Source: Candidatus Thorarchaeota archaeon
GTDB lineage: Archaea > Asgardarchaeota > Thorarchaeia > Thorarchaeales > Thorarchaeaceae
Reading direction: 5' to 3'
Assembly: GCA_963726195.1 (NCBI GenBank)
Contig: CAVSBO010000003.1
Coordinates: forward strand, 451,011-515,010
DNA: 64,000 nt
The position numbers and the translations under genes were made by a program. Shown here piece by piece: positions 2,290-63,985 of this stretch. The notes under the pieces were generated by a model that was given only the letters and a program-made list of their open reading frames with translations, did no database searches and was not told where the DNA came from. Within the stretch, counting starts at the first letter, position 1. Every line of letters starts with the position of its first letter.

Positions 2290-5166
2290 TTGCGTTACTG
2301 CTCGCTGCCGTCCCGCCTGCTGCGGCGGCACCTGGCAGCTGATTCTGAGAATTTCACTACCACAACGTACCGAGACACTGGGGCTACGAATGCTACAGGC
2401 TGGGGGAACGGATCAGTCAGGCTTCCCCATAGGGGTCCCGTACTGGTGGCCACCTATGACACGCCCGCGGGTCCGTTTGGGGCAGTGGTGCAAGGAGGCA
2501 TTGCTTATGTCGCAGACAACGTGGGAGGATTGCGGATAATCAACGTGACCAATCCTCGAAACCCGGTCCTATTAGGCAACTGCTCTACGCTCAGCGTGGC
2601 GTTTGGAGTTGCGGTACAGGATGGCATCGCCTATATCGCCAACCAAGTCAAGGGTCTGCAGATAGTCAACGTAACCAATCCTCGAAAGCCTGTGTTGTTA
2701 GGCAATTGCGATACACTGGGCCGTTCAGAATATGTAGCATACAGCGGCGGCTTGGCCTACATCGCTGACTACGACTACGGACTCCAGATATTCAATGTCA
2801 CCAATCCTCATAACCCCGTGCGGATCGGTACATACAACACACCCGGTTTCGCGTTCGGCGTATCTGTGGCAGGAGGCGTGGCTTACGTTGCTGACACTGG
2901 CTCGCTTCTAGCAATCAATGTGACAAACCCACGAAACCCTGTCCTGCTGGGCAGCTACGGCGCGGTCTCCAATGCAATCGAGGTAACGGTATCGGGCTCT
3001 ATCGCGTACGTTGCGAACGGCAATTCGGGGTTGTTGCTGCTCAATGTTACGAATCCTCGACAGCCCGCATTGCTGGGCTCCTGTGATACTCCAGGCACTT
3101 CAGAGGAAGTATACGTGACGGGCGGGTTCGCTTATGTTGCTGACTATTATTCAGGACTTCAAATCATGAATGTTACAAATCCTAAGAACCCAAAGACAGT
3201 GGGCACCTATGACACGCCCGGTATCGCATATGGAGTGACAGTAGCAGGGTCTTACGCTTACGTCTCGGACGAAAGCTCAGGATTGCAGATACTGAACGTT
3301 GCTGACTATGTGACGCCAACTTCGGCTGGCGTGTGTAGCGATCCCCCCTATGCTGATGGAGTGTATGTCGACGGAACATGCGCCTACGTTGTTGCCCATG
3401 ATGATGGACTATACGTGGTCAACGTAACCGACCCCAGAAACCCCGCTGTCCTGGGCCATTGCGCTATCAATGCGTACTCACTTGGCGTATGGGTTGCGGG
3501 CCGGTTTGCGTATGTGGCAAGCTATGGATCATACCCCGATGTTGGCCTGCAAATCGTCAACATCACCGACCCTCGCCATCCGACCATCGTTGCCACCTAT
3601 GGCATGGGCTGGTTTGAGGACGTATGGTCGGACGGGCGCTATGCCTACGCCGTTGGCCCGTACACGGGTAGCAAGGGCATGCTTTCGATTGTCAATGTCA
3701 CGAACCCCAAGAACCCAACGCTTCTGAGTTACTACGTCACGAACGGGACCGCCTTAGGAGTCCACATAGCAGGTCCGATTGCCTACGTAACTGACGCGGG
3801 CCCTGGTTTGTATGTGCTTAACGTTACCAACCCGAGGAAACCCTCTCTCTTGGGCTCCTATGCCTTGCCCCCATCTAGCCTCGGACTTGATGTCTTCGTG
3901 ACCGGCCCCTTTGCGTATGTCGCCGACTATACATCAGGCTTCAGGGTCTTCAATGTCACAGACCCACATCATCCGACCCTCACTGGCTCATATCCCATAT
4001 CCGGGGCATATGGCGTTTGGGTGTCGGGCTCTTTCGCATATGTGGCAGATGAGGACGCAGGTCTGCGAGTCTTCAACGTCACAGATCCCAGGCATCCTGC
4101 TCTCTTGGGCACATATGACACTCCCGGCATTGCATATGATGTATGCGCGGCCGGCGACTATGCGTATGTCGCCGATTACACCCAGGGCTTGAGAGTTGTG
4201 GAAGTCCAGCGTAATCGATGCCGTGAGTTTGAGACTAAGGCCGTAGCTCAGTCCCTGACCGTCTCTTCACCTTCTACCACTGCGCTAGTTGTGAATGCCA
4301 CCCTCACCTCCAGTCAAGGCATCCCGAGCGGCACATCGGTTGCCTACTATCTATCATCAGACGGCGGTGTCAATTGGGAATCAGTGAGTCCCGGAGTTCT
4401 CCACGTCTTCGGTCATATCGAACACGAACTAAGATGGCGGGCAGTCCTGACCACGGGTGATACACTGAAGACGCCAGTAATCAGCAGTCTCTCCATTACC
4501 TATCAAACTCGATTGACAGGTACGACCCTCGCTTCGCCTATTGATGGTAGTGGCAGTAACGACAATACACCCTTGTTGGTCTGGAATGCACTTGCCGGAG
4601 CAAACACCTACCTGCTACAGATTGACACATCAAGCACATTCAACTCGACCAACCTACGCAGTGTGACCGTCGCGAGCACAAGCTACTCTCCAGTCACTCC
4701 CTTGTCGGACGGTACGTGGTACTGGAGAATTGCTGCGAACGACTCGGCAGGTGTTCTGGGTGTCTTCTCTGCAACATGGAGCCTCATTGTCGAGACCGTT
4801 GCACCTACATGGGTGGTCACGCCTGTTTCGCAGACACTGACCTACGGGCAAGCACTGAGTTATCAGCTGCAAGCCTCTGATCCGTCTGGTATCGGCCTGT
4901 GGCAGGTCAACGATACTGCGCACTTTGCTATCAGCTCGGGCGGCCTTCTGACAAATGCAACGACCTTGGCAAGCGGCAGCTATGGTGTCACCGTAACGGT
5001 ATATGACATCTACAACAACCCATTGTCTGTATCCTTTACCATCACGGTCCAGGCTCAGACCACAACGACGACACCTCCGGGCATTCCGTCTACCCTCTAT
5101 TTGGGAATCAGTCTCGGAGCTGTGATAGCAATCATCATAGTGATTCTCCTGCGCCGGAAGGGTTAG
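2290..5166 (+). CDS. LVIVD-repeat beta-propeller surface protein with C-terminal Ig-like region, Thr-rich linker and TM anchor
   Basis: About 16 repeats of the pattern G.AYVAD...GL.I.NVTNPR.P.LLG, which is LVIVD-repeat like. The protein ends in QTTTTTPP, a TM helix and RRKG. The true start is probably the ATG at 2203 (MKVRKEYSR...), but the signal-peptide region reads through two frames. Confidence 0.8.
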   Translation: MRYCSLPSRLLRRHLAADSENFTTTTYRDTGATNATGWGNGSVRLPHRGPVLVATYDTPAGPFGAVVQGGIAYVADNVGGLRIINVTNPRNPVLLGNCSTLSVAFGVAVQDGIAYIANQVKGLQIVNVTNPRKPVLLGNCDTLGRSEYVAYSGGLAYIADYDYGLQIFNVTNPHNPVRIGTYNTPGFAFGVSVAGGVAYVADTGSLLAINVTNPRNPVLLGSYGAVSNAIEVTVSGSIAYVANGNSGLLLLNVTNPRQPALLGSCDTPGTSEEVYVTGGFAYVADYYSGLQIMNVTNPKNPKTVGTYDTPGIAYGVTVAGSYAYVSDESSGLQILNVADYVTPTSAGVCSDPPYADGVYVDGTCAYVVAHDDGLYVVNVTDPRNPAVLGHCAINAYSLGVWVAGRFAYVASYGSYPDVGLQIVNITDPRHPTIVATYGMGWFEDVWSDGRYAYAVGPYTGSKGMLSIVNVTNPKNPTLLSYYVTNGTALGVHIAGPIAYVTDAGPGLYVLNVTNPRKPSLLGSYALPPSSLGLDVFVTGPFAYVADYTSGFRVFNVTDPHHPTLTGSYPISGAYGVWVSGSFAYVADEDAGLRVFNVTDPRHPALLGTYDTPGIAYDVCAAGDYAYVADYTQGLRVVEVQRNRCREFETKAVAQSLTVSSPSTTALVVNATLTSSQGIPSGTSVAYYLSSDGGVNWESVSPGVLHVFGHIEHELRWRAVLTTGDTLKTPVISSLSITYQTRLTGTTLASPIDGSGSNDNTPLLVWNALAGANTYLLQIDTSSTFNSTNLRSVTVASTSYSPVTPLSDGTWYWRIAANDSAGVLGVFSATWSLIVETVAPTWVVTPVSQTLTYGQALSYQLQASDPSGIGLWQVNDTAHFAISSGGLLTNATTLASGSYGVTVTVYDIYNNPLSVSFTITVQAQTTTTTPPGIPSTLYLGISLGAVIAIIIVILLRRKG

Positions 5167-5409
5167 TACAGCACATTTGACCTAAGGTTGAAACGGTCTC
5201 ACAGTTGTGCAAAGGAAGGAAGCCCTACGGGGCTTCCCCTTCATTTTGTTTTGCAGACGCAGAGGGTTTTTGCTACGGTTGACCTGCCATGTCTCTCAAG
5301 GCCGGAGTGGGTTACTCGCTGGACAGAACGAACGTGCCATCAAGCAGCCGAAACCCTCGATACTGTTTTTACCTAGAAGGACCATACCGGGCCCTGTATT
5401 CGCAGGGGA

Positions 5410-6561
5410 TTGATTGTCTTGAAGGTCCTAGTCGTTGGGTCAGGCATGATGGGCAGGGGCGCAGCGTATGACCTTGCCAAGAACCCGAAGGTCGACCAAG
5501 TGGTCATTGGTGACATCGACCTAGCACGTGCTAGTGCTCTTGCCAAGGAGACTGGTCCTAAGGCAATTGCAGAGAAAGTCGATGCACGCAACAGAGCCCA
5601 GCTTGTGAAGTCATTCTCGAAGGTTGACTCGGTCGTCAGCTGTGTCAGCTATACCGTGAACTTGCTGTGCACCGAGGTGGCAATCGAAACCGGGAAGCAC
5701 ATGTGTGACTTAGGGGGCAATCTCGACGTTGTGGAAAAGCAGCTTCAGCTACATGACAAGGCGAAAGCTGCAAGAGTGACCGTGGTACCCGATTGCGGAC
5801 TCGCGCCGGGCATGGTCAACGTTCTTGTCCGAGACGGTGTTGACAACCTGAGCAGAACGGAAAGAGCACGAATCAGAGTTGGAGGGCTACAACAGAAACC
5901 CAAGCCACCGCTCAACTACTCTCTGGTATTCTCTGTTGAAGGGTTGATTAACGAGTATGTAGAACCATGTATGGTGCTGAGAGGCGGGAAAATAGCCTAT
6001 GAGGACCCGCTCATCGGTTTCGAACAGGTGAAGTTCCCTGAACCGTTCGGCATGCTTGAAGCATTCAATACCAGCGGTGGAACGTCCACACTACCAGTGA
6101 CCTATCAAGGCAAGATAAAGAATCTCGACTACAAAACGATCAGATATCCCGGACATGGACACGACATGTGGTGTCTGTTGAAGCTCGGATTCATGGACGG
6201 CAACGAACAGGACTTCGATGGTATCAAAGTCGCTCCGAGAAAGGTGCTCGAAAGACTTCTCGAAAAGAACCTCCCGAAATCCGAAAAGGATGTCACGCTT
6301 CTCCGCGTAACAGTGGAAGGCTGGAAAGGGACGGAGTCGCGTACGATAGAATACGAACTCATGGACTACTTCGATGACAAGACTGGCTTGACTTCGATGA
6401 TGAGAACGACTGCTTTTCCCGCAGCACTCACTGCGGTCTGGATGACTGATGGGACTATCAACGAAAGAGGAGTTCTTCCTCCCGAACGTGCCATACCTTC
6501 GGGCCCATTCATTGAGCAGATGCGCGCACGAGGAATTGATATCAAGCGAAGAGTATTCTGA
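5410..6561 (+). CDS. Saccharopine dehydrogenase family NAD(P)-binding protein
   Basis: N-terminal Rossmann motif VLVVGSGMMGRGAAYDL. Length and C-terminal region fit the Sacchrp_dh N+C domain architecture. Confidence 0.7.
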   Translation: MIVLKVLVVGSGMMGRGAAYDLAKNPKVDQVVIGDIDLARASALAKETGPKAIAEKVDARNRAQLVKSFSKVDSVVSCVSYTVNLLCTEVAIETGKHMCDLGGNLDVVEKQLQLHDKAKAARVTVVPDCGLAPGMVNVLVRDGVDNLSRTERARIRVGGLQQKPKPPLNYSLVFSVEGLINEYVEPCMVLRGGKIAYEDPLIGFEQVKFPEPFGMLEAFNTSGGTSTLPVTYQGKIKNLDYKTIRYPGHGHDMWCLLKLGFMDGNEQDFDGIKVAPRKVLERLLEKNLPKSEKDVTLLRVTVEGWKGTESRTIEYELMDYFDDKTGLTSMMRTTAFPAALTAVWMTDGTINERGVLPPERAIPSGPFIEQMRARGIDIKRRVF

Positions 6562-31782: not shown

Positions 31783-32187
31783 ATGGATGAAGCGAAACGC
31801 ACGGAGATGCGAAATCTCGAGACCAGTCTCAATTCCTCTCTTCGCACCTATGTCCCGACTGCGAGTGTTCAGCTGAGCTGGGACCTGACGACTGAAGTTG
31901 ACATTCCTTCACCCCGCGCATACGTCAACCTCGTTGAAGACGATTATCCAACTCCTGTCGAGCGTTGCGGACATGGACTTCAGCGAGCATACATCTTGAC
32001 CATGCTTCAGCAACTGGCTTATGCCCAGGCTGCGGCCAAGCTGGCAGAGGACGAAGCTACCGGAGAAATACCAGGTGCCGAGCCAGGCTATCTGATTGGC
32101 ATCGAAGAACCGGAACTGTATCAACACCCTAACAGACAGCGCCACCTATTCAAGATTCTCCAAAAGCTCGTCCCGCGGCGGTATTGA
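31783..32187 (+). CDS. OLD-family ATPase/TOPRIM nuclease, fragment 2 (ABC-like signature and Walker B region)
   Basis: GHGLQRAYILTML and LIGIEEPELYQHPNRQRHL. The bridging segment 31565-31786 reads QFFGFKEVG...IFVPAVRDASEDA... in a third frame. Confidence 0.65.
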   Translation: MDEAKRTEMRNLETSLNSSLRTYVPTASVQLSWDLTTEVDIPSPRAYVNLVEDDYPTPVERCGHGLQRAYILTMLQQLAYAQAAAKLAEDEATGEIPGAEPGYLIGIEEPELYQHPNRQRHLFKILQKLVPRRY

Positions 32188-32992
32188 AGGTATCGCAAAG
32201 AATACTCAGATAATCTGCAGTACGCACTCGCCACTTTTCGTTGACATCAGGTTGTTCAGCAATATCAGACGAATCTACAAAGTTCAAACCCAAGCAGAGA
32301 ATCCAAAGGAGAGTATAGTGATCAGGACGACCCTTGACGACGTGGCTGCTAGGATTGGCTTTGCGGACCAGAAGCCACAGGGCACGTTTACTGGCACAGC
32401 CCTCGAACCAAGGCTTCAGACTCTCATGACACCGTGGATGAATGAAGGCTTCTTTGCGGATGCCGCAGTTCTGGTCGAGGGCGAAGAGGACAGAGCGCTA
32501 ATCCTAGGAGTAGCCCAGACAATGGGATGCAATCTCGAAGGCAATGGCATCTCTGTCATTCCGTGTATGGGAAAGACTAACCTCGACCGACCTGCAACTG
32601 TCTTCAGCTTGCTCGGCATTCCAGTGTACATGATTTGGGATTCTGACCACGAAGGCAAGGATGCCCTTCCCGAAGACAATCATAGGCTTCTGAGGTTGTT
32701 GGGTGTGGCCGTGGAAGACTGGCCCGATGAGATTGCAGACAACTATGCATGTTTCGAGCATACCATCTCAAAGACGTTCCAGGAGGAGATTGGAGAGGAA
32801 GTATTCAGTGATCGTCTGAAAGCATGCCAAAGCAGATTCTCTATCAGGAAGAAAGACCATGCCATGAAGAACCCTCTTGTAATTCAGAGTATCGTCGAAG
32901 AAGCCAAGACATTGGGACACACGAGCAAATCGTTAGAAGACATCGTCACGAGGTTGACTCGACTCGTTCACCAAGAGGCAAGCGAGAACTAG
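32096..32992 (+). CDS. OLD-family ATPase/TOPRIM nuclease, fragment 3 (end of the ATPase plus the TOPRIM domain)
   Basis: ICSTHSPLFVD, then TOPRIM-like AVLVEGEEDRALI and VYMIWDSDHEG. Confidence 0.7.
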   Translation: MASKNRNCINTLTDSATYSRFSKSSSRGGIEGIAKNTQIICSTHSPLFVDIRLFSNIRRIYKVQTQAENPKESIVIRTTLDDVAARIGFADQKPQGTFTGTALEPRLQTLMTPWMNEGFFADAAVLVEGEEDRALILGVAQTMGCNLEGNGISVIPCMGKTNLDRPATVFSLLGIPVYMIWDSDHEGKDALPEDNHRLLRLLGVAVEDWPDEIADNYACFEHTISKTFQEEIGEEVFSDRLKACQSRFSIRKKDHAMKNPLVIQSIVEEAKTLGHTSKSLEDIVTRLTRLVHQEASEN

Positions 32993-33244: not shown

Positions 33245-33327
33245 GCCGCCGTAGCCTAATGGTTATGGCGCAGGTCCGATAAACCTGTACCCTTCGTGGT
33301 TTGGGGGTTCGAGTCCCCCCGGCGCAT
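33245..33327 (+). tRNA. tRNA-like gene with anticodon-loop triplet GAU (Ile?) and non-canonical features
   Basis: Acceptor GCCGCCG, D-arm GCCT/AATGGTTA/TGGC, anticodon stem CAGGT/ACCTG with loop CCGATAA, a 15-nt variable region TACCCTTCGTGGTTT, and T-arm GGGGG/TTCGAGT/CCCCC. The 3-prime acceptor CGGCGCA pairs fully only if one G is added. Confidence 0.6.
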
Positions 33328-48849: not shown

Positions 48850-49464
48850 TTACTCTGATTGGTCCTTGGACCTCTTCGACATGATCTCATCAACCTTGGC
48901 CCGGTCTTCCTCAGACAGGCCCTTCATGGCTTCTGCTGACTGGCGAAACATGTGATTCATGAGCACCGCATACAAGCCAGGAAGTGCCTTTTCAGTTTCA
49001 CACCGTTCCTTGAACTCCTGTTCCGCGGTCTCTCTGGCCTCGCGCAGCGAATCCTTCTGAACTTCGCCCTTTCCAATTCCGGAACAGTTCTTCTCAATTA
49101 CCCGGAACTTTGTTCCATCGTAGTCGAGTGGATAGGTCCGGCAAGATATGGGACGAGAATACCTAATGGAGCATGCGTTTGAGTCTTCATGATAAAACAT
49201 ACACGCGGTACTCTCGGGATCCTTCTTGAGCGGGCGTCGCTGGGTCTCAATGCCGATTGAATCCTCCTCGGACTCTGGTGCGACCAGAACGAGTCCGGGA
49301 ATAATGTGCGAAAGATAGTCTTGTTCAGTCCATCTCGAGATGTCGCCAATCGTCACATTGACGTGGGCACGAGTGCAGCAGACCCTCTGCGGGCAGTCCT
49401 GTTCTTGGCATTTGAAGCTGTACTTTGACTTGTCTGACATCAATATCACCAAGACGTCTTGCAC
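48850..49464 (-). CDS. YkgJ-family zinc/iron-chelating (CxxCxxCC-type) protein
   Basis: CPQRVCCTRAHVNVTIGDISRW and ACMFYHEDSNACSIRYSRPISCRTYP match the YkgJ/UPF0153 pattern. Confidence 0.6.
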   Translation of the reverse strand: MQDVLVILMSDKSKYSFKCQEQDCPQRVCCTRAHVNVTIGDISRWTEQDYLSHIIPGLVLVAPESEEDSIGIETQRRPLKKDPESTACMFYHEDSNACSIRYSRPISCRTYPLDYDGTKFRVIEKNCSGIGKGEVQKDSLREARETAEQEFKERCETEKALPGLYAVLMNHMFRQSAEAMKGLSEEDRAKVDEIMSKRSKDQSE

Positions 49465-49633
49465 ATCATGGAATCCACCAGTGAATCTTAATGGTTTCGA
49501 AGGAGGCCTAAATGCTCTCCTGTCCTCTCCGCGGTCAATATGTTTAATACAGCCGACTAGGGGCTTTCGACCCGAGTGCGACCCGGATGGCGTTGTTCAT
49601 GGCGAAGGTGTGTCATCCGGCCTGCGGAGGTTC

Positions 49634-50770
49634 ATGCCAATAATGGAACAAGATTGGCACTCGATTGATGAACAGGCAGTGATGGACGCACTTGGGACCA
49701 GTCGAGCTGGTTTGGATAGGGGAGATGCAGGGGAGAGGCTTCTGCAGTACGGACCTAACGAATTGGTGAGAGCGGAGAAGGAATCTCCTATCAGGATGCT
49801 GTTGGGTCAGTTCACCGATGTTCTCATTGTCATTCTGCTTATTGCCGTGGCAATCTCTTTCGTCGTGGGAGAAATGGTTGACGCGATTCTCATCCTGATA
49901 ATTGTGATCGCCTCTGCGGCCTTGGGTTTTGTTCAGGAGTACCGGGCTGAGCGTGCACTTGAGGCACTTCAGAAGATGTTGGCGCCAACAACCACGGTCG
50001 TCAGAAACAATATGGCGGTAGAGATTACAACACAGGACGTAGTTCCGGGTGACATACTCCAGTTGAAGGAAGGGGATAAGGTTCCTGCAGATGGTAGGGT
50101 GATTGAATCCTTCAACCTGAGGGTAACAGAAGCGGCGATAACTGGGGAATCAATACCTGTACAGAAAAGTACCCCGAAACTCCCTCGAGACACCCTCCTG
50201 TCTGACCGGAAAAACATGGTGCTTTCGGGAACTGAAATCGCCGCGGGCAGGGGCGTTGCGGTGGTAACTGCCACGGGTATGGCGACGGAATTTGGGAAAA
50301 TCGCTCACGAAGTAACTACTGTGGTCAAGGAACAGACTCCGCTTGAGAAGCGCACAAACGAAATAGGCAAGTGGCTGGGTGCTATTTCTCTCACTGTATG
50401 CCTGACTGTGATAGCCGTGGGCGTTGTAAGAGATGTTCTTGCGCATGGATACTTGCGTCCTGCATTCTTTGTGGAGATGGTTCTCTTCGGAGTCTCGCTC
50501 GCCGTGGCAGCTGTTCCGGAATCATTGCCTGCAGTTGTGACAGGCAGCTTAGCAATAGGAATGCACAGAATGGCAAAGAGCAACGCACTTGTTCGCAAAA
50601 TGTCAGCCGTTGAGACACTTGGTTCGACGACTGTGATATGCTCTGACAAGACAGGAACCATCACAAGGGGAGAAATGACCGTCCGAGAGGTTCGCATGCC
50701 CAACTCGAGAATCGGTGTTACAGGAGAAGGGTACGAACCCACTGGCAAGCTTATTGATTACCGAAGGTGA
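49634..50770 (+). CDS. P-type cation-transporting ATPase (P2/Ca-ATPase-like), fragment 1
   Basis: Cation_ATPase_N-like [20 protein letters not shown], the TGES motif (ITGESIPV) and the phosphorylation site [14 protein letters not shown]. The start is placed at the ATG at 49634; the track ORF begins at 49340 inside the opposite-strand gene. Confidence 0.85.
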
Positions 50771-51020
50771 CTCCTCCGTCCAAACAAGAGAAGGGTTCAG
50801 ACTACTAATGAATGCGTGCATACTCTGCAATGATGCAGACCTCGTTCTTGAGAACGCGAAGTGGAGAGTCAGAGGCGATCCCACCGAAGGTGCTCTTGTA
50901 GTGTTGGCAGAAAAGGCGGGATTCCACGTCTCCGAAGTACGCAGCCGCTGCCCGAGGATTGGCGAGGTCCCCTTCAGCTCTGAAAGAAAGCGAATGAGCG
51001 ACAATGCACTATGGAAATGA
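50715..51020 (+). CDS. P-type ATPase, fragment 2 (N-domain)
   Basis: CNDADL....[18 protein letters not shown] and [10 protein letters not shown] continue the alignment in a second frame. Confidence 0.75.
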
Positions 51021-52398
51021 AGACTGTAAGATTGTTTACCTGAAGGGAGCACCGGAAGTTGTACTTAACCGCTGCTCAAAGATACACGAGGCCGATGGTA
51101 TCAAGATCCTGAGCGAGGAGTCGAAGCAGGGATTTCTCGAAGATGCAGAGATGATGGCCCAGAAAGCATTACGGCTTCTTGCATTTGCTTATCGTGAAGG
51201 CAAACACATGGATGACTCCTCGGAAGACACGCTCGAAAAGGACTTGGTCTTTCTCGGGATTGTGGGGATGATCGATCCTCCTCGTGGTGATGCGATAGAG
51301 GCCATAAGGGTCTGCAAGTCCGTTGGAATAAAAACGGTCATGATAACTGGTGACCATGCTCTCACTGCAAAGGCAATAGCGAAAGAAGCCGGAATATACG
51401 AAGACGGCGACCTAGTGCTCACTGATGCGGAAATGGAGAAAATCGATGACAGCAGTTTTGAGCAGATGGTGGAAAAGGTCTCGGTGTACGCAAGAGTCTC
51501 GCCAATTCGCAAATTGAAGATTGTCAGGGCTTGGAAGAAGCGTGGCAAGGTCGTGGCCATGACCGGGGATGGCGTGAATGATGCACCGGCTCTCAGGCAG
51601 GCAGACATAGGAGTTGCAATGGGCCTAACAGGAACCGACGTCACGAAGGAAGCGGCCGACCTCGTGCTTGCTGATGATAACTTCGCAACCATTGTGAAAG
51701 CGATCGAATTGGGCAGATGGATATACGACAACATCAAGAAATACCTAGCCTACCTGATCCAGACCAACTTGGTCGAAATCGTAATGCTCTCTGTTGCAGT
51801 TCTCATAGGATACCCGCTTCCTCTCATACCGGCCCAGCTGCTCTACATCAATCTCGTCACAGACGGTTTCCCAGCAATAGCTCTTGGATTGGGCCCTCCA
51901 GATCCTGATATTATGCAGAGACCGCCCAGAAGTCCCAATGAGAGTATATTCAGCAAAGAGGTAAAGCTGTTCTATGTAATCTCTCTCTTGATGCAAAGCC
52001 CCGTTTTTCTCTACGTATTCGTGAGCATTGTTCCTCTTGGCGCTGCTGAGGGAAGCACGCAATTGTTGTTGGGCAGAAGCATCTTGTTTTACATGTTTGT
52101 TTTCATGGAGCTTGTCGTCGCGATCAAATGCCGGTCTCTGAGATACTCGATCTTTCGGATTCGACCCCATCGGCTTCTGTGGCTGGCAGTAATTGGCAAT
52201 GCGGTTTTGACTATTGGACTATTCAGCGTACCCTTTATCGCTGACGCTTTCGGTCTGGTCCCAATTGGCACGTTCGGTGTCGAGGTCATTGTGATGGTGT
52301 GCCTGCTCACTTTTGTCTCTCTGGAAATTGCCAAATATCTCGTTAGTAAGTTCAGCTTGCCGAATGAGGCGAAAACTCTTCCGACAACTCTGATGTGA
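51004..52398 (+). CDS. P-type ATPase, fragment 3 (N/P domains and C-terminal TM helices)
   Basis: KGAPEVVL, MITGDHALTA, VAMTGDGVNDAPALRQADIGVAMG, and 5-6 C-terminal TM helices. Confidence 0.85.
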   Translation: MHYGNEDCKIVYLKGAPEVVLNRCSKIHEADGIKILSEESKQGFLEDAEMMAQKALRLLAFAYREGKHMDDSSEDTLEKDLVFLGIVGMIDPPRGDAIEAIRVCKSVGIKTVMITGDHALTAKAIAKEAGIYEDGDLVLTDAEMEKIDDSSFEQMVEKVSVYARVSPIRKLKIVRAWKKRGKVVAMTGDGVNDAPALRQADIGVAMGLTGTDVTKEAADLVLADDNFATIVKAIELGRWIYDNIKKYLAYLIQTNLVEIVMLSVAVLIGYPLPLIPAQLLYINLVTDGFPAIALGLGPPDPDIMQRPPRSPNESIFSKEVKLFYVISLLMQSPVFLYVFVSIVPLGAAEGSTQLLLGRSILFYMFVFMELVVAIKCRSLRYSIFRIRPHRLLWLAVIGNAVLTIGLFSVPFIADAFGLVPIGTFGVEVIVMVCLLTFVSLEIAKYLVSKFSLPNEAKTLPTTLM

Positions 52399-58278: not shown

Positions 58279-60456
58279 TTGACTCCGACCGGAAAACATC
58301 CTGCAGGAAAGAAAGCCAAGAAAGCTGAAACAGCAAAGACTGCGAAGAAGGCACGTCCAGAGAAGGCCGTCAAGAAGAGCGGCTCCGTCAGGGCACCAAA
58401 GAAGCTGGCTGCGGGAAGGAAGGCAAAGAAGAGCGGCCGAGCAAAGGCTGCAAGCAAGCCTGTATCCACAAAGACTGCACCTGGAGTCGAAGTTCCAACT
58501 GAAGAGTCTGGTGAGATTCGTCAGGGTACAATAGCCAAGTTCATGCGCAAGCGAACTCAGCTTGTCGGTTTCGAAACCGGGCTCAATAAGCACACTCAGT
58601 ATGCAATTGAGTTCCTCGATAACTCCGCCGACGCAGTTGAGAGCCTATGGTGGAAACAAGAAAGAAAGCCTAGGCTCAGTGACCAGCTCGATCCGAAACT
58701 GCAAGAAGAAATCAAAGAGAGACTCAAGGATCAGCTTACGGACACAATCGCTTTCAGCAAGAAGATTGAGAAAGATGTTCGAGATGAAAAGCCCGTCGAC
58801 ATACCACCAAGACCGAAAGAGAATCTCGAAGCACACCTCACCCGATTCAGGAAATTCCTCGTACCCTTCAGGAGTTTCATCACAAAGCATGAGCCTCTTA
58901 TTGTGATTCAAGTGACAGAGGTGCTAATGCCGGACCTAGTCCCGGTCGACCAAGAAGAAGGATTCAAGGTCTACGAGTTCATTTGCTTTGACACCGGTAT
59001 CGGTATGGTTCCAGCAGACCTGGAGAGATTTGGCATCTATCTTGCATCCAGTAAGTCTGAGCATCTGAAGCAGACCAGAGGAAGTCAAGGCTTCGGTGCG
59101 CCGTCTGCTTTTAGTGATGCTCAGAACACCACTGGCAAGCCAATATTCGTGGTCACCAAGAGATTCAACAGCGACAGAACGACCGTGGCAGAATTCTACA
59201 CGACCACTGCCAACACGAAGGAGTATGTCAATGGGCCCCTAGAGATGGATCTTCCACTGGAGCATGGTACGTACGTGAAGCTCTACTATCTCAATATCCA
59301 GTACAAGCGGGGCTATGCTGATACCTATGCTGAAATGGCATCCCTCTTGGACCCACATATCACGATAGTATTCATAGACCCTTACGGGGAGATACACGTC
59401 TATCCGCGTCGAGTCGGTGCCGTCCCAGACGAACCAAAGTATGCCCAAGCCCATCCTGCGAGCATAAGAATAGGGGAGTTCCAAGACCTGCTCCGTGAGA
59501 CCACAGAACGTGACCTACAAGGATTCTTGACGAGGGGCTTCTGCAGACTCAGCTCAAACAAAGCCAATGCAATTCTGGAGAAAACAAACAAGGAACTTGG
59601 AATCCGCAAACTCGATAAGATAAGCGGCCGAACGCCTACCGATTCTCTGTCGAAGACTGAGATAGAATACCTCTACAAGTCCTTCTCGAGCGAAGAATAT
59701 ATCGCACCGCCGACTGACACTGTGGTTCCCGTGGGAGAGGAGGTCTTCGAAAAAACCATCAGGTCTGCCTTCAAGCCCGAATTCGCAGCTGCGATCACAA
59801 GGAAGCCGACCTCGGGCAAAGGGCTTTCATTCGCCGTAGAGGTATGTATCGCTTATGGCGGTGAAATAAAGTCTGCATCTTCTGCCAATGCCGTGCTTTG
59901 GAGATACGTCAACAGAGTACCCAAGCTCAGGGACAACAGCGACTGTGCCACATGGAAGGCAACCGCTTCAGTAAACTGGAAGAACTACAAGCTTGACGTA
60001 TTCGACAACGGTATACCAAGAGGACCCGTGATGCTCTTCATACATGTGTGTGGTGCTTACGTCCACGTCATGTTCAAGGGACAGAGCAAACAGGCTCTCG
60101 CGGAAGATGAGGTACTTATCAGAGAAATCAAACTCGCGCTCGAAGACACGGGAAGGAAGTTCAGGTCCTTCATCACAAAGCGGGACACTGCGCAACGCAA
60201 GGCGAAAAGAGCAGGTATTCTCGCGATGTACGCAGACCAGTTTGCTCACAGTCTGGTGACAATCGCAAATGATGGCAAACGCAAAAAGCTATACGATGCT
60301 GAAGTTGTCGCACAGAAGCTCAGGGACGCCATATCGGGCTTCGAACTTGAGGCCGATGAAGAAGAGGTTGGAATGGACGTACTCGGTGAAGAGCTGGTTT
60401 CAGGTTCCTCTGCCAGCGAAGAAGAAGGCTTCTCATCTGGGGGCAAGGATGAATAG
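58279..60456 (+). CDS. top6B: DNA topoisomerase VI subunit B with a Lys/Ala-rich N-terminal tail and an acidic C-terminal tail
   Basis: Bergerat-fold N-box EFLDNSADAVE, ATP-lid TRGSQGFGAPSA, and a transducer region. The first ~70 aa are KKAKKAETAKTAKKA... and the last ~45 aa are Glu/Asp-rich. Confidence 0.85.
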   Translation: MTPTGKHPAGKKAKKAETAKTAKKARPEKAVKKSGSVRAPKKLAAGRKAKKSGRAKAASKPVSTKTAPGVEVPTEESGEIRQGTIAKFMRKRTQLVGFETGLNKHTQYAIEFLDNSADAVESLWWKQERKPRLSDQLDPKLQEEIKERLKDQLTDTIAFSKKIEKDVRDEKPVDIPPRPKENLEAHLTRFRKFLVPFRSFITKHEPLIVIQVTEVLMPDLVPVDQEEGFKVYEFICFDTGIGMVPADLERFGIYLASSKSEHLKQTRGSQGFGAPSAFSDAQNTTGKPIFVVTKRFNSDRTTVAEFYTTTANTKEYVNGPLEMDLPLEHGTYVKLYYLNIQYKRGYADTYAEMASLLDPHITIVFIDPYGEIHVYPRRVGAVPDEPKYAQAHPASIRIGEFQDLLRETTERDLQGFLTRGFCRLSSNKANAILEKTNKELGIRKLDKISGRTPTDSLSKTEIEYLYKSFSSEEYIAPPTDTVVPVGEEVFEKTIRSAFKPEFAAAITRKPTSGKGLSFAVEVCIAYGGEIKSASSANAVLWRYVNRVPKLRDNSDCATWKATASVNWKNYKLDVFDNGIPRGPVMLFIHVCGAYVHVMFKGQSKQALAEDEVLIREIKLALEDTGRKFRSFITKRDTAQRKAKRAGILAMYADQFAHSLVTIANDGKRKKLYDAEVVAQKLRDAISGFELEADEEEVGMDVLGEELVSGSSASEEEGFSSGGKDE

Positions 60457-62672
60457 TGGCGGGAGAGAAGGAGAACAGCCAGCCTGAGCAGACCACCCTC
60501 GGAGAGCTCGTCGAACGAAAGAAGTCGGGGAAACATAAAATGAAGTCAGCGAAGAGCAACAAGCAAGCTCAGAAAGGCAGCATTGCCAGTTCACATGGCA
60601 AGAAGACCAACAAGAAACCGGATTCTGCAAAACCAAAGAAGAAACAATCCTCGAAAGCCGCGCCCACCCCGAAGGCGGCAAAGCAGAAGCTGCCCCGTGG
60701 CAAGCCCGGAAAAGAGAAGAAAGAACAAGCAACAGAAGGACTTAGCACTAAAGTTGCCCCGGCCGTTCTAGCTCAGGAGGGCACTCCTCTGAATCTCTTG
60801 CCAGGTGTGGGAGACAAGCTGAATCAGAAGCTAACCTCTGCAGGTTACGACTCAGTAGAGAAATTGTCCAAGGCGAGGGCCGATGCAGTCTCACGTAAGG
60901 TCAAGGGTCTGGACATAGAGGAAGCGAAGGAGATCATTCACACTGCCACAGAGTATCTTCATGGCAAGCTCGCTGCGGAAGAGGTGTCATTAGAGGAAGC
61001 GGCTACTCCAGCCGGTCAGACAGGCCATCCATCTGCTGGCGAGAGTGCAGCTCAGACCGGAGCCGCAAAGTCGGCTGAAGAAAGTGCGAAGGCGCCAGAA
61101 TACGATATTAAGCTCACTGAGTTGCCAGGAGTTGGCCCAAAGCTTGCCGAGAGATTCAGAGAGGCAGGATATGATTCCGTCGCACGCGTTTCGAGATCCC
61201 GTCCCGACGCTCTGGCACGTACTGTCAATGGTCTCAGCAAAGATCGCGCCAAGTCTATTGTCGCCGCTGCCAGGGAGGCTATCACCTCCAGGCAGCTCGC
61301 GGAATTAGCAGAAGAGGCTGCGAAGACACCTTCAGAGGCGAAGAAGGTCAAACCCGAAGCTGGAAGCAAGAAACGAGGGAAAGCAGAGATTCCAGAGGCA
61401 GCCATCTCACCCCTGCTGCGAAAAGCAAAATCCAAGCAGCCGATTGAGAGACACCCGAAACCCGTTACCAAAAAGTCAGGGCTCCCTGTTCCTGAGGCAG
61501 TCATTGAACTGCGAAAGGAATTGAAGGCGCGTTATCGTGCTGCGGAAAAGGCCGAAGCAGCCGCAGGAGAATCGGAAGCATCTTTCGCTCAAGGCACTGT
61601 GCAAGTCGCCAATCTCACATCGGACGAGACCATCGCAAGGTTGGTTGAAGCCGCTTTGGAGGTACTCAATGAGACAATGACCACTGGCCGTCCCTCGTTC
61701 GAGATACCGAGCAGGTCCTCTGACAACATTGTCTGGGACGAAATCAAAGACTTGCTGCTTCTTGGCATGCGCACCATATCTCGGCCCTATCACTCTCTTG
61801 CATCAGTTTTGGACGCGACAAGGACTGCCCGAGTCATGGAGATTGTCTACCAGCTTCTGAAATCCGGTCTCCATGCAACGAAAAGGGAACTCTACTATGC
61901 AGATGTCAATCTGTTCAGGGACCAGAGATACAGTGACAAAATCATTGAGGACGTTGCTTCGATGCTGCCGACAACTCGTGACAGCATCCACGTTGTGGCA
62001 GCCGCAAGAGGCTCTGCAATGGGAAGGATTGTCATTAGAGATGCAGGCGACAGAATAGACCTCACACAAATGGGTACGGGCGGGTGGGCTATAACGCCTT
62101 TCTTGGACCAGGTCGAAATAGTCGAAAGTGATGCGGAGTTCATTCTTCTTTCGGAAAAGGATGCAGCAGTCATGAGGCTGGCAGAAGCCAAGTATTGGAA
62201 CAAGCAGCCCTGCATAGTGATTACTGGGAAGGGATCAGGCGACATAGCCACGAGGGCGTTCCTCAAGACAATGGTGAAGGAGCTTGAAATCCCAGCATTC
62301 GCTCTGATGGACTCAGACCCCTACGGCCATTATATCTATTCGGTCTTTCTGAGAGGCAGCAAGCGGCTCAGCTATGAATCACCTTTCATAGCCACGCCGG
62401 AGCTCAAACTTCTGGGAGTCCTCAGTAGAGACCTAGATGAATTCAAAGTCCCGAAGAGCGTCCGCATTCCCATGGAGCCTGCTGACATCAAACGTGTGAA
62501 AGAGATGCTTAAGGAGCCGTTCGTGCAGAAGAACGATCCTTGGGTCGAAGACCTGCAGTTGATGCTGAGACTCAAAGAGAAAGCAGAGATTCAAGCTTTT
62601 GCAAGTCACGGCTTTGAGTATCTGACAGATACTTACATTCCACGGAAACTGGAAACCGGCGACTGGATTTAG
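60456..62672 (+). CDS. top6A: DNA topoisomerase VI subunit A (Spo11 family) with a ~375-aa N-terminal extension containing two HhH modules
   Basis: The C-terminal ~360 aa carry the Top6A core: catalytic-Tyr region KRELYYADVNLF and TOPRIM region ILLSEKDAA...ITGKGSGDIATRAFL...LMDSDPYGHYI. The GTG start overlaps the top6B stop (taGTG). Confidence 0.85.
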   Translation: MAGEKENSQPEQTTLGELVERKKSGKHKMKSAKSNKQAQKGSIASSHGKKTNKKPDSAKPKKKQSSKAAPTPKAAKQKLPRGKPGKEKKEQATEGLSTKVAPAVLAQEGTPLNLLPGVGDKLNQKLTSAGYDSVEKLSKARADAVSRKVKGLDIEEAKEIIHTATEYLHGKLAAEEVSLEEAATPAGQTGHPSAGESAAQTGAAKSAEESAKAPEYDIKLTELPGVGPKLAERFREAGYDSVARVSRSRPDALARTVNGLSKDRAKSIVAAAREAITSRQLAELAEEAAKTPSEAKKVKPEAGSKKRGKAEIPEAAISPLLRKAKSKQPIERHPKPVTKKSGLPVPEAVIELRKELKARYRAAEKAEAAAGESEASFAQGTVQVANLTSDETIARLVEAALEVLNETMTTGRPSFEIPSRSSDNIVWDEIKDLLLLGMRTISRPYHSLASVLDATRTARVMEIVYQLLKSGLHATKRELYYADVNLFRDQRYSDKIIEDVASMLPTTRDSIHVVAAARGSAMGRIVIRDAGDRIDLTQMGTGGWAITPFLDQVEIVESDAEFILLSEKDAAVMRLAEAKYWNKQPCIVITGKGSGDIATRAFLKTMVKELEIPAFALMDSDPYGHYIYSVFLRGSKRLSYESPFIATPELKLLGVLSRDLDEFKVPKSVRIPMEPADIKRVKEMLKEPFVQKNDPWVEDLQLMLRLKEKAEIQAFASHGFEYLTDTYIPRKLETGDWI

Positions 62673-62827: not shown

Positions 62828-63985
62828 TTAGGCCTTCCTTACCTTTCTATCAAGAGTGGCAAGCTTCCGTGAATCTCCTGCTTCTCGGAATTTCTCAGCC
62901 GCTTCCTTGTACTTAACCAGAGATTCTCTCGACTGTCCACTTTTCGCAAGTGAGTCGGCCTCTGTCTCCAGCTCCCGTCCCCATGCGGCGTAAGACTCAC
63001 GTACTCTCTCGGCGCACCTAGCCCTCTTCTTAGCATCCGTCGAAAACATGTAGAACTCTCGAGCCTTCTTGAACTGGACGATAGCCCATTCGAACTCACC
63101 TGACTTCAGATGGCGTTCACCTTGTATGCAATGAGATTCTGCGAGAGAATCGTAGCCATCATCAGCTCGTCTGGTGCTCTCTTCAACCATCTTGCCGTTT
63201 CCTGCTTTTTCAAACAGCCTCTTTGCCATCTCGAAAGATTCAATCGCACTCTCGTGTTCATTGTCCTTCAGCTTCGCCATGCCAAACTCAAGTCTAGCCC
63301 TGCCCATCGCATCATAGACATACGGCGGATACTCGAACTCGTCTTGAGTAATGACCGCACCACACTTGGGGCACGAAGGCGTCTCCAGCTCGGGCATTGA
63401 GATCGTAGTTCCAATCTTGGTCGGTTTGCCAACAACCGCGTCGATGAAATCGCGGCTCGTGACTCCCCGGCCTTCTGGGAACAGGTGCGCGACCGCAGCC
63501 TTCGTAGAGACTGTGCTCATTTCTGCTTCTGGATGGTGACGCGCTTCCTCATCACTGACCTCCGGTGCCTCAGATACAACCTTCGGCGGCGCCACCTCTT
63601 GAAACGGATTGCCTTCCTTGACATCGCTGCTTTCAATCTCTTTTGTGACAGGATACTCCCACGTAAGGGTCGTATCCTCTTGAGAGTGGGGAATCCGTTT
63701 TTCTTCCTGCCGCGCTGCTGGCGCTGGAGCAGCGGCTACGGGGGTTGCCTTCTTTCCAGTCGCGACCTGGGCTCCAGAGTCTGGCACTTGGGCGTCGTCT
63801 GAATCCCAATCAGACAGTAGGTTCTCGAACTCCTCGTCATTTGTCAGCTGGTCTGAATCGGCACCAGCAGGGAGTTCTCCAAGGTCCGATTCTTCTAATG
63901 CCGGGAGAGTAGCTGAATCCTGTTTGCTGGACGATGCGCTCTGTGCCGTTGCCGTCTCCTTGGCCTCGTCCAACATTCCCAGCAT
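62828..63985 (-). CDS. Hypothetical protein: acidic disordered N-terminus, zinc ribbon-like CPKCG, and C-terminal TPR-like helical repeats
   Basis: Long ORF with normal codon composition. The frame is still open upstream of the ATG at 63985 to the window edge, so the start is uncertain. Confidence 0.5.
   Translation of the reverse strand: MLGMLDEAKETATAQSASSSKQDSATLPALEESDLGELPAGADSDQLTNDEEFENLLSDWDSDDAQVPDSGAQVATGKKATPVAAAPAPAARQEEKRIPHSQEDTTLTWEYPVTKEIESSDVKEGNPFQEVAPPKVVSEAPEVSDEEARHHPEAEMSTVSTKAAVAHLFPEGRGVTSRDFIDAVVGKPTKIGTTISMPELETPSCPKCGAVITQDEFEYPPYVYDAMGRARLEFGMAKLKDNEHESAIESFEMAKRLFEKAGNGKMVEESTRRADDGYDSLAESHCIQGERHLKSGEFEWAIVQFKKAREFYMFSTDAKKRARCAERVRESYAAWGRELETEADSLAKSGQSRESLVKYKEAAEKFREAGDSRKLATLDRKVRKA

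Follow-up and report, generated by a model that had tools for sequence, protein, structure and literature searches.

Topoisomerase V of Methanopyrus kandleri carries helix-hairpin-helix (HhH) domains of the (HhH)2 type that wrap DNA and serve as a processivity factor; when grafted onto polymerases, these domains confer processivity and salt tolerance (PMC9489208, PMC8313265). Topoisomerase VI (topo VI) of M. mazei has been described as a slow, highly distributive relaxase (PMC8837201), and an extra N-terminal helix was reported for the A subunit, TopoVIA, of Asgard archaea and eukaryotes (PMC9665070). Here we analysed a stretch of 64,000 nt (the window) from a Candidatus Thorarchaeota archaeon (assembly GCA_963726195.1, contig CAVSBO010000003.1, positions 451,011 to 515,010), in which a top6B-top6A gene pair encodes a topo VI whose cleavage subunit, Top6A, bears an N-terminal arm with two (HhH)2 modules ahead of its catalytic core. 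This HhH-armed Top6A is a real, conserved, and lineage-defining variant of topo VI. It amounts to a natural experiment in which an entire Asgard class fused two to seven (HhH)2 domains and basic tails to the cleavage subunit, a fusion that parallels the unrelated topoisomerase V, resembles the engineered HhH-polymerase chimeras, and bears on how cells offset a slow, distributive topo VI.

The top6B-top6A pair and its reading frame

Top6A is encoded by one single, GTG-initiated open reading frame (ORF) of 738 aa in the ORF list of the window. A Pfam scan placed the TP6A_N domain at aa 455–513 (70.7 bits against a cut-off of 26) and the TOP6A-Spo11_Toprim domain at aa 562–732 (179.3 bits). Within the catalytic context K476-R477-E478-L479-Y480-Y481, which fits the pattern R-x-x-[FY]-Y, R477 and Y481 are invariant in 100 homologs, as are E567, D619, and D621 of the Toprim domain. 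The NCBIfam Top6A models align from aa 383–394 onward only, in agreement with the first-pass annotation of this DNA, which had described a 738-aa Top6A with a recognisable core from about aa 380. All NCBIfam Top6A equivalog models scored below their cut-offs, the best being NF003333 with 297.7 bits against 465; this reflects divergence of the Asgard clade and not loss of any defining Top6A feature. The catalytic residues and domain content indicate that the 738-aa protein is a bona fide Top6A.

The partner encoded directly upstream, Top6B, reached 341.6 bits with NF003218 (cut-off 274), matched Topo-VIb_trans with an E-value of 4e-42, and displays the DNSADA N-box together with the DTGIGM and GSQGFG boxes. 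Its TAG stop codon overlaps the GTG start of Top6A by one base (TAGTG), and a Shine-Dalgarno (SD)-like sequence, AAGGATGA, is located 4–11 nt upstream of the GTG. The syntenic locus of Thorarchaeota metagenome-assembled genome (MAG) OWC5 (L001) holds genes of 725 and 738 aa with the identical overlap, and the pair was found in 58 loci, 53 of them with a complete upstream ORF. Possession of a Top6B partner sets topo VI apart from Spo11-like nucleases that stand alone. The two genes are probably coupled in translation, and the operon would encode the housekeeping topo VI.

In-frame ATG codons ahead of the Top6A core occur at aa 29 and aa 408 only, and alternative TTG or GTG codons are present at aa 356, 382, 396, and 401; no SD-like sequence precedes GTG382. 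The reading frame runs uninterrupted in the window, in the 120 database homologs, and through 59 of the 61 complete ORFs from species representatives. Ratios of nonsynonymous to synonymous substitution (dN/dS), calculated by the Nei-Gojobori method against the syntenic OWC5 gene (81% amino-acid identity), were 0.16 for aa 1–380, 0.16 for module 1, 0.035 for module 2, and 0.009 for the core, which indicates that the extension is under purifying selection and hence translated. At its N-terminus, Q12, T14, and L15 are conserved in at least 90% of a 100-sequence alignment. Since conservation of this motif runs to the extreme end of the protein, translation starts at or next to the GTG; an additional short isoform may exist beside the full-length product.

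The (HhH)2 modules and their distribution

Pfam HHH_5 matched two stretches of the extension with 63.4 bits against a cut-off of 27. The two module copies align without gaps at a BLOSUM62 local score of 128, compared with 23.3 ± 4.6 and a maximum of 46 in 2000 shuffles, and the repeat is thus far above chance. They lie where the first-pass annotation had placed two copies of about 55 aa (approximately 60790–60950 and 61110–61270; Table 1), and the Lys-rich and module peptides that it quoted were reproduced by translation. In the 100-sequence alignment G119, Y131, A164, G225, G227, G238, Y239, R244, R247, G259, and A265 are invariant and G151 is nearly so; both hairpins of each module are of the GhG type, with G119, G151, G225, G227, and G259 as their invariant or nearly invariant glycines. 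Modelled alone with AlphaFold2 (AF2), each module forms a five-helix (HhH)2 unit with a predicted local distance difference test (pLDDT) score above 90. No other ORF of the window carries the module.

Single-domain matches in a Foldseek search of the PDB were headed by the N-terminal domains of RadA/Rad51, followed by topoisomerase V, the NusA AR domains, and domain 5 of Hjm. The RadA/Rad51/Dmc1 N-terminal matches superimposed over 54–58 residues with root mean square deviations (rmsd) of 0.9–1.2 Å and 33–44% identity, among them 1pzn_A (44% identity, 1.1 Å over 54 columns) and both 1t4g and 3ntu (about 0.9–1.0 Å). Foldseek E-values were weak (at least 0.01) because the module is small, with reported probabilities of 1.00. 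NCBIfam RadA models matched both modules, through their positions 4–69 only, with aa 217–283 aligned at E 3e-16 (59.5 bits against a cut-off of 259).

By sequence, the best PDB match of each module was (HhH)2 repeat 7 of Methanopyrus topoisomerase V (residues 624–681), which for module 2 gave an E-value of 8e-10, compared with 5e-08 for P. furiosus Rad51. Matches within topoisomerase V were confined to residues 595–684 of the (HhH)2 region and left the N-terminal topoisomerase domain unmatched. The Pfam scan of Top6A found no RecA-type ATPase domain, and inspection of the sequence after the modules disclosed no FxxA polymerisation motif. The first-pass annotation had read the modules as RadA/Rad51-N-like and of recombinase type; the fold was recognised correctly, but the slightly better sequence match to topoisomerase V repeat 7 than to RadA makes the label "recombinase-type" over-specific. 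These matches indicate that the modules are generic HHH_5 (HhH)2 domains, for which "RadA-N-like" is correct but not exclusive.

The best 120 matches in a large protein collection (644–953 aa) all combine HHH_5 with Top6A domains, and those that carry an organism name come from Thorarchaeota MAGs. A module hidden Markov model counted two modules in 112 of 121 proteins and three, four, five, or seven in the remainder. From the GTDB species representatives, 74 loci were recovered, essentially all from Thorarchaeota and 61 of them with complete ORFs; 59 of these ORFs hold two to seven modules (50 with two, one with three, six with four, one with five, and one with seven). The two apparent module-less Top6A were rejected, as the gene in L060 is interrupted by an assembly gap (a run of N) and that in L064 is frameshifted at the contig start. 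The architecture is therefore present in all evaluable Thorarchaeota species representatives (59/59). Where the modules of three- and four-module proteins could be typed clearly, the copy next to the core was of the module-2 type and the additional ones of the module-1 type.

An exhaustive search of 1.84 billion representative proteins, of which the top 150 representative clusters were examined, retrieved the fusion in two 50%-identity clusters only (827 bits). The next tier, at 359 bits, comprised proteins of 367–494 aa that match aa ~355–738 only, including a diatom TopoVIA, a Hydrothermarchaeales Top6A, and another Asgard protein. Among these 150 clusters, the other Top6A yielded no HhH match. 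Full-length Top6A from outside Thorarchaeota were mostly 350–430 aa long, close to the 350–400 aa initially given as typical. Among longer Top6A elsewhere, three that were scanned in the range of 833–947 aa (833, 844, and 911 aa) contain inteins and LAGLIDADG endonucleases and no HhH, and the other two long ones scanned have N-terminal extensions free of HhH. When only the two-module region served as query, the homology search yielded one protein, a partial member of this family, the word index being insensitive to the low-complexity stretch. The architecture is thus clade-wide in Thorarchaeota, was not detected outside in these searches, and appears to be clade-restricted.

NCBI names these proteins "helix-hairpin-helix domain-containing protein" or "hypothetical protein", probably because the Top6A equivalog scores fall below their cut-offs, and JGI names them "meiotic recombination protein SPO11". 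Full-text searches on topo VI, Asgard, and helix-hairpin-helix found no paper combining all three, and HhH in Top6A goes unmentioned across the topo VI evolution and review papers that we checked. The proteins are thus public under generic names, and the HhH-Top6A fusion appears to be undescribed in the searchable literature. The architecture had at first been called unusual; it is so with respect to other lineages and to the literature, but it is the rule within Thorarchaeota. One consequence is an annotation gap, since a survey that goes by product names could report Thorarchaeota to be without Top6A.

Other lineage-specific variants were observed in passing. Two metagenomic Top6A from outside Thorarchaeota, P0121 (461 aa) and P0128 (470 aa), have an N-terminal extension of about 75–100 aa with a beta-grasp/ubiquitin-like look by eye, for which Pfam gave nothing at E ≤ 1e-3; it would be a different lineage-specific add-on. 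In Asgard MAG JBHLNK01 (locus L077, positions 5001–6242), a Top6A/Spo11-type gene encodes a 413-aa protein (P0126) that is 46% identical to the Thorarchaeota core, with no recognisable Top6B gene before it and an unannotated 403-aa gene after it. The latter could be a divergent B-like partner, or the locus could be a non-topoisomerase Spo11-like system.

The extension comprises about 345–380 aa ahead of the Top6A core. Its first 111 residues carry a net charge of +18 (isoelectric point, pI, 10.3), and the whole arm a net charge of +25 (pI 9.8), compared with a core pI of 5.4. In the full-length AF2 model, the arm outside the modules is predicted to be disordered. The motif near the N-terminus has the consensus [ED][TI][VI]-Q-x-T-L-G-[ED]-[LV]-[VIL] with Lys runs on its flanks, and occurs in 172 of 195 family sequences; it is missing from truncated ones, from P0029 and P0062 with their short N-termini, and from L045, which has a QASL variant. 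At the other end of the arm, HhH-less homologs, eukaryotic ones included, align from about aa 339–361 onward, which identifies the helix at aa 347–369 as the one reported for Asgard and eukaryal TopoVIA. Hence, of the approximately 375-aa extension initially proposed, the arm stands, while the alignments assign its last ~35 aa to the known Asgard/eukaryal Top6A and not to the novel part.

Several features of Top6B were noted as well. Compared with M. mazei Top6B (2q2e), with which query residues 81–122 align to 14–55 and query 216 onward to 58 onward, it holds an insertion in the GHKL domain directly after the N-box (DNSADAVE). Its Lys-rich N-terminal tail is long only in the sub-clade of the window and measures 15–116 aa elsewhere (loci L003–L073). 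Thorarchaeota Top6B proteins (644–760 aa) always end in an acidic tail with a conserved motif of the GFET..DQEETETD..GSDLVADxPL type. A candidate PCNA-interacting peptide (PIP) box, QGTIAKFM, was rejected, as it is the canonical Top6B N-strap that aligns to M. mazei residues 14–55.

Table 1. Features of the top6B-top6A gene pair, in positions of the window.
Feature	Position	Strand	Basis or remark
Top6B gene, 725 aa	58279..60456	+	ORF list, Pfam, NCBIfam
Top6B Lys-rich N-tail, aa 1–80, pI 11.1	58279–58520	+	Charge computation
Top6B insertion of ~93 aa, aa 123–215	58645–58923	+	Alignment to M. mazei Top6B
Top6B acidic C-tail, aa 681–725, pI 4.1	60319–60453	+	Charge computation
Top6A gene, 738 aa including extension, GTG start	60456..62672	+	ORF list, Pfam, NCBIfam, translation
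Short linear motif, aa 10–21 (PEQTTLGELVER)	60483..60518	+	Alignment, family motif scan
Lys-rich tail, predicted disordered, aa 22–111	60519..60788	+	pLDDT <50
(HhH)2 module 1, aa 112–166, hairpins LPGVG and KGLD	60789..60953	+	Pfam, repeat alignment, dN/dS 0.16, pLDDT >90
Acidic Ala-rich inter-module stretch, aa 167–218	60954..61109	+	Poorly conserved; disordered beyond ~aa 177, after the long last helix of module 1
(HhH)2 module 2, aa 219–274, hairpins LPGVG and NGLS	61110..61277	+	Pfam, dN/dS 0.035; more conserved, nearer the core
Helix continuation, then basic disordered linker, aa 275–346	61278..61493	+	Ends in conserved KKSGLPVP (aa 339–346), S341 invariant
Extra N-terminal helix, aa 347–369	61494..61562	+	pLDDT 74–88; Asgard/eukaryote-type TopoVIA helix
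Top6A catalytic core, aa 381–738	61596..62669	+	TP6A_N/5Y-CAP aa 455–513 (R477, Y481); Toprim aa 562–732 (E567, D619, D621)

Candidate roles of the arm

The reading that we favour, and consider fairly probable, is that the housekeeping top6B-top6A operon supplies a Top6A with a lineage-specific arm and that this arm serves as a non-specific tether on double-stranded DNA (dsDNA), a mechanism that we infer. From the N-terminus, the arm would present the 12-residue motif, the Lys-rich tail, two (HhH)2 domains with a flexible linker, the basic linker, and the Asgard/eukaryote-type helix. (HhH)2 domains bind the DNA backbone in a manner that is not sequence-specific. In the A2B2 enzyme, four of them, together with the basic tails, would contact the backbone of dsDNA in this way, either on the DNA flanking the G-segment or on the T-segment, and would form a tether near the gate. 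The likely effect would be higher DNA affinity, local residence time, processivity, or salt tolerance in an otherwise slow, distributive enzyme type. Such an avidity tether agrees with the strongly positive charge, the length and flexibility of the linkers, and a copy number that varies from two to seven; the last of these is easier to reconcile with an additive, avidity-type function than with a fixed interface between proteins. Gyrase has been reported absent from Thorarchaeota (PMC9348778); if they are without any other type II enzyme, topo VI would have to relax supercoils as well as decatenate. As the Top6B C-terminus abuts the N-terminal region of Top6A in known structures (PMC13040014), the acidic Top6B tail could, speculatively, modulate the basic arm by electrostatics.

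Several points weigh against a DNA tether. Module 1 has a neutral net charge, and the argument for DNA binding by the modules proceeds from their family membership. Domains of this HhH family are also able to bind proteins, and the Foldseek list contains the NusA AR domains as well as the RAD51 N-terminal lobe bound to the histone H4 tail (8xbw). In the full-length AF2 model the core reached a pLDDT of about 50, too poor to place the arm relative to the DNA gate, and this model was left out of the fold search owing to its poor core. To our knowledge, other gyrase-less archaea, for example, Crenarchaeota, manage without such modules, so that being the sole type II enzyme is an insufficient rationale for the arm.

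The protein-binding NusA AR domains and 8xbw among the structural neighbours speak for another function, in which the arm would be a recruitment or partner-binding device that acts through the N-terminal motif, the (HhH)2 modules, or both, with PCNA or the replisome, archaeal histone chromatin, and RadA filaments as candidate partners. The motif sits at the extreme N-terminus between Lys runs with its Q, T, and L highly conserved, and makes a new candidate partner-binding peptide. In its spacing, Q-x-x-L-x-x-h-h, it corresponds to a relaxed PIP box. Moreover, the TopoVI helices specific to Asgard archaea and eukaryotes have been suggested as partner interfaces (PMC9665070). However, the motif does not match the PIP-box pattern Q-x-x-[LIM]-x-x-[FYW]-[FYW], as aliphatics (L/V and V/I/L) replace the canonical aromatic pair at positions 7–8. 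No other protein contained it in a sample of about 382,000 residues of Thorarchaeota ORFs, which included no recognised replisome proteins. The modules are followed by no visible RadA-type FxxA, and a module number that varies from two to seven argues against a stoichiometric interface. We regard recruitment as an unlikely main role, though one to be taken seriously.

A wider reading would combine the two functions in a self-contained, regulated, replisome- or chromatin-coupled type IIB enzyme, in which the N-terminal peptide docks to PCNA or another hub, the RadA-N-like modules clamp flanking or histone-bound DNA, and the acidic Top6B tail gates the basic arm. If this were true, the arm would build into the enzyme an equivalent of the accessory factors recruited in trans by eukaryotic TopoVI/Spo11 complexes, and the archaeal group closest to eukaryotes would have acquired the module from the recombinase lineage. 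We consider this combination improbable.

The modules would, alternatively, add an apurinic/apyrimidinic (AP) or deoxyribose phosphate (dRP) lyase activity for DNA repair, as three (HhH)2 domains of topoisomerase V do. The best PDB sequence match is a topoisomerase V (HhH)2 repeat, and that enzyme combines topoisomerase with AP-lyase activity within its HhH array (PMC9489208). Nevertheless, no conserved lysine cluster was identified in the modules beyond general basicity, and lyase activity is absent from the RadA N-terminal domain, to which they are equally similar. The matched repeat 7 (residues 624–681) is presumably not one of the lyase repeats, and we judge a lyase role to be very improbable. 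Finally, an artefact in which translation begins near aa 356–408 and the upstream part is untranslated or a separate gene could appeal to the GTG start codon and to the downstream TTG, GTG, and ATG codons, but this idea, raised at first as a start near aa 370, is ruled out for practical purposes by the continuous frame, the dN/dS of the extension, the conserved aa 10–21 motif and invariant module residues, and the stop/start overlap with its SD-like sequence.

Neighbouring features and comparison with known systems

Elsewhere in the window, a P-type cation ATPase is split over two consecutive ORFs on the forward strand about 230 nt apart; the first (49340–50770) holds Cation_ATPase_N and E1-E2_ATPase, and the second (51004–52398) a HAD hydrolase domain and Cation_ATPase_C. 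A frameshift or a sequencing error could account for the split, as could a pseudogene or a gene that is genuinely split. The ORF at 32096–32992 (forward strand) encodes 298 aa with an OLD-like TOPRIM domain; it lies just upstream of the only tRNA gene of the window (33245–33326, forward strand) and could be a defence or mobile-element remnant. Downstream of top6A, a 385-aa ORF on the reverse strand (62828–63985) has no Pfam match; its N-terminal half is acidic and of low complexity, its C-terminal half helical. At the syntenic position, L001 and L002 hold a 448-aa gene with a faint Zn-ribbon that may be its counterpart, by position alone.

Canonical Top6A proteins (M. jannaschii, S. shibatae, M. 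mazei, and A. thaliana) share with the Thorarchaeota protein the 5Y-CAP/winged-helix domain with its catalytic Tyr and the Toprim domain with E and DxD, and in both cases an adjacent Top6B contributes the GHKL and transducer domains. The Thorarchaeota core is 41–46% identical to its nearest homologs outside the clade, diatom TopoVIA among them, and the extra N-terminal helix is common to Thorarchaeota Top6A and Asgard/eukaryal TopoVIA. What the canonical proteins lack are the approximately 345 N-terminal residues with two (HhH)2 domains, Lys-rich disordered segments, and a conserved terminal motif.

RadA/Rad51/Dmc1 proteins share the (HhH)2 domain and provide the best single-domain structural match to the arm. 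In contrast to these recombinases, the Thorarchaeota protein has no RecA-type ATPase core and no FxxA was seen; the domain is instead duplicated and joined to a topoisomerase. Topoisomerase V of M. kandleri, a type IC enzyme, is likewise a topoisomerase fused to (HhH)2 domains, 12 in tandem and of the same Pfam family as the Thorarchaeota modules. The catalytic domains are unrelated, however, as the Thorarchaeota enzyme is of type IIB. The array is C-terminal and compact in topoisomerase V, whereas in Thorarchaeota Top6A it is N-terminal with long disordered linkers between modules, and 12 modules compare with two here and up to seven in relatives.

The role proposed for the arm would be comparable to that of the topoisomerase V (HhH)2 array and of the C-terminal DNA-binding domains of type IIA topoisomerases. 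The C-terminal domains (CTDs) of GyrA and ParC, the H2TH domain and Ig-like CTD of Top6B, and the plant topo VI partners BIN4 and RHL1 contact DNA in an auxiliary, non-catalytic way and so tune the choice of substrate and the processivity, as we propose for the Thorarchaeota arm; their folds and positions are unrelated to it, and the analogy is one of function only.

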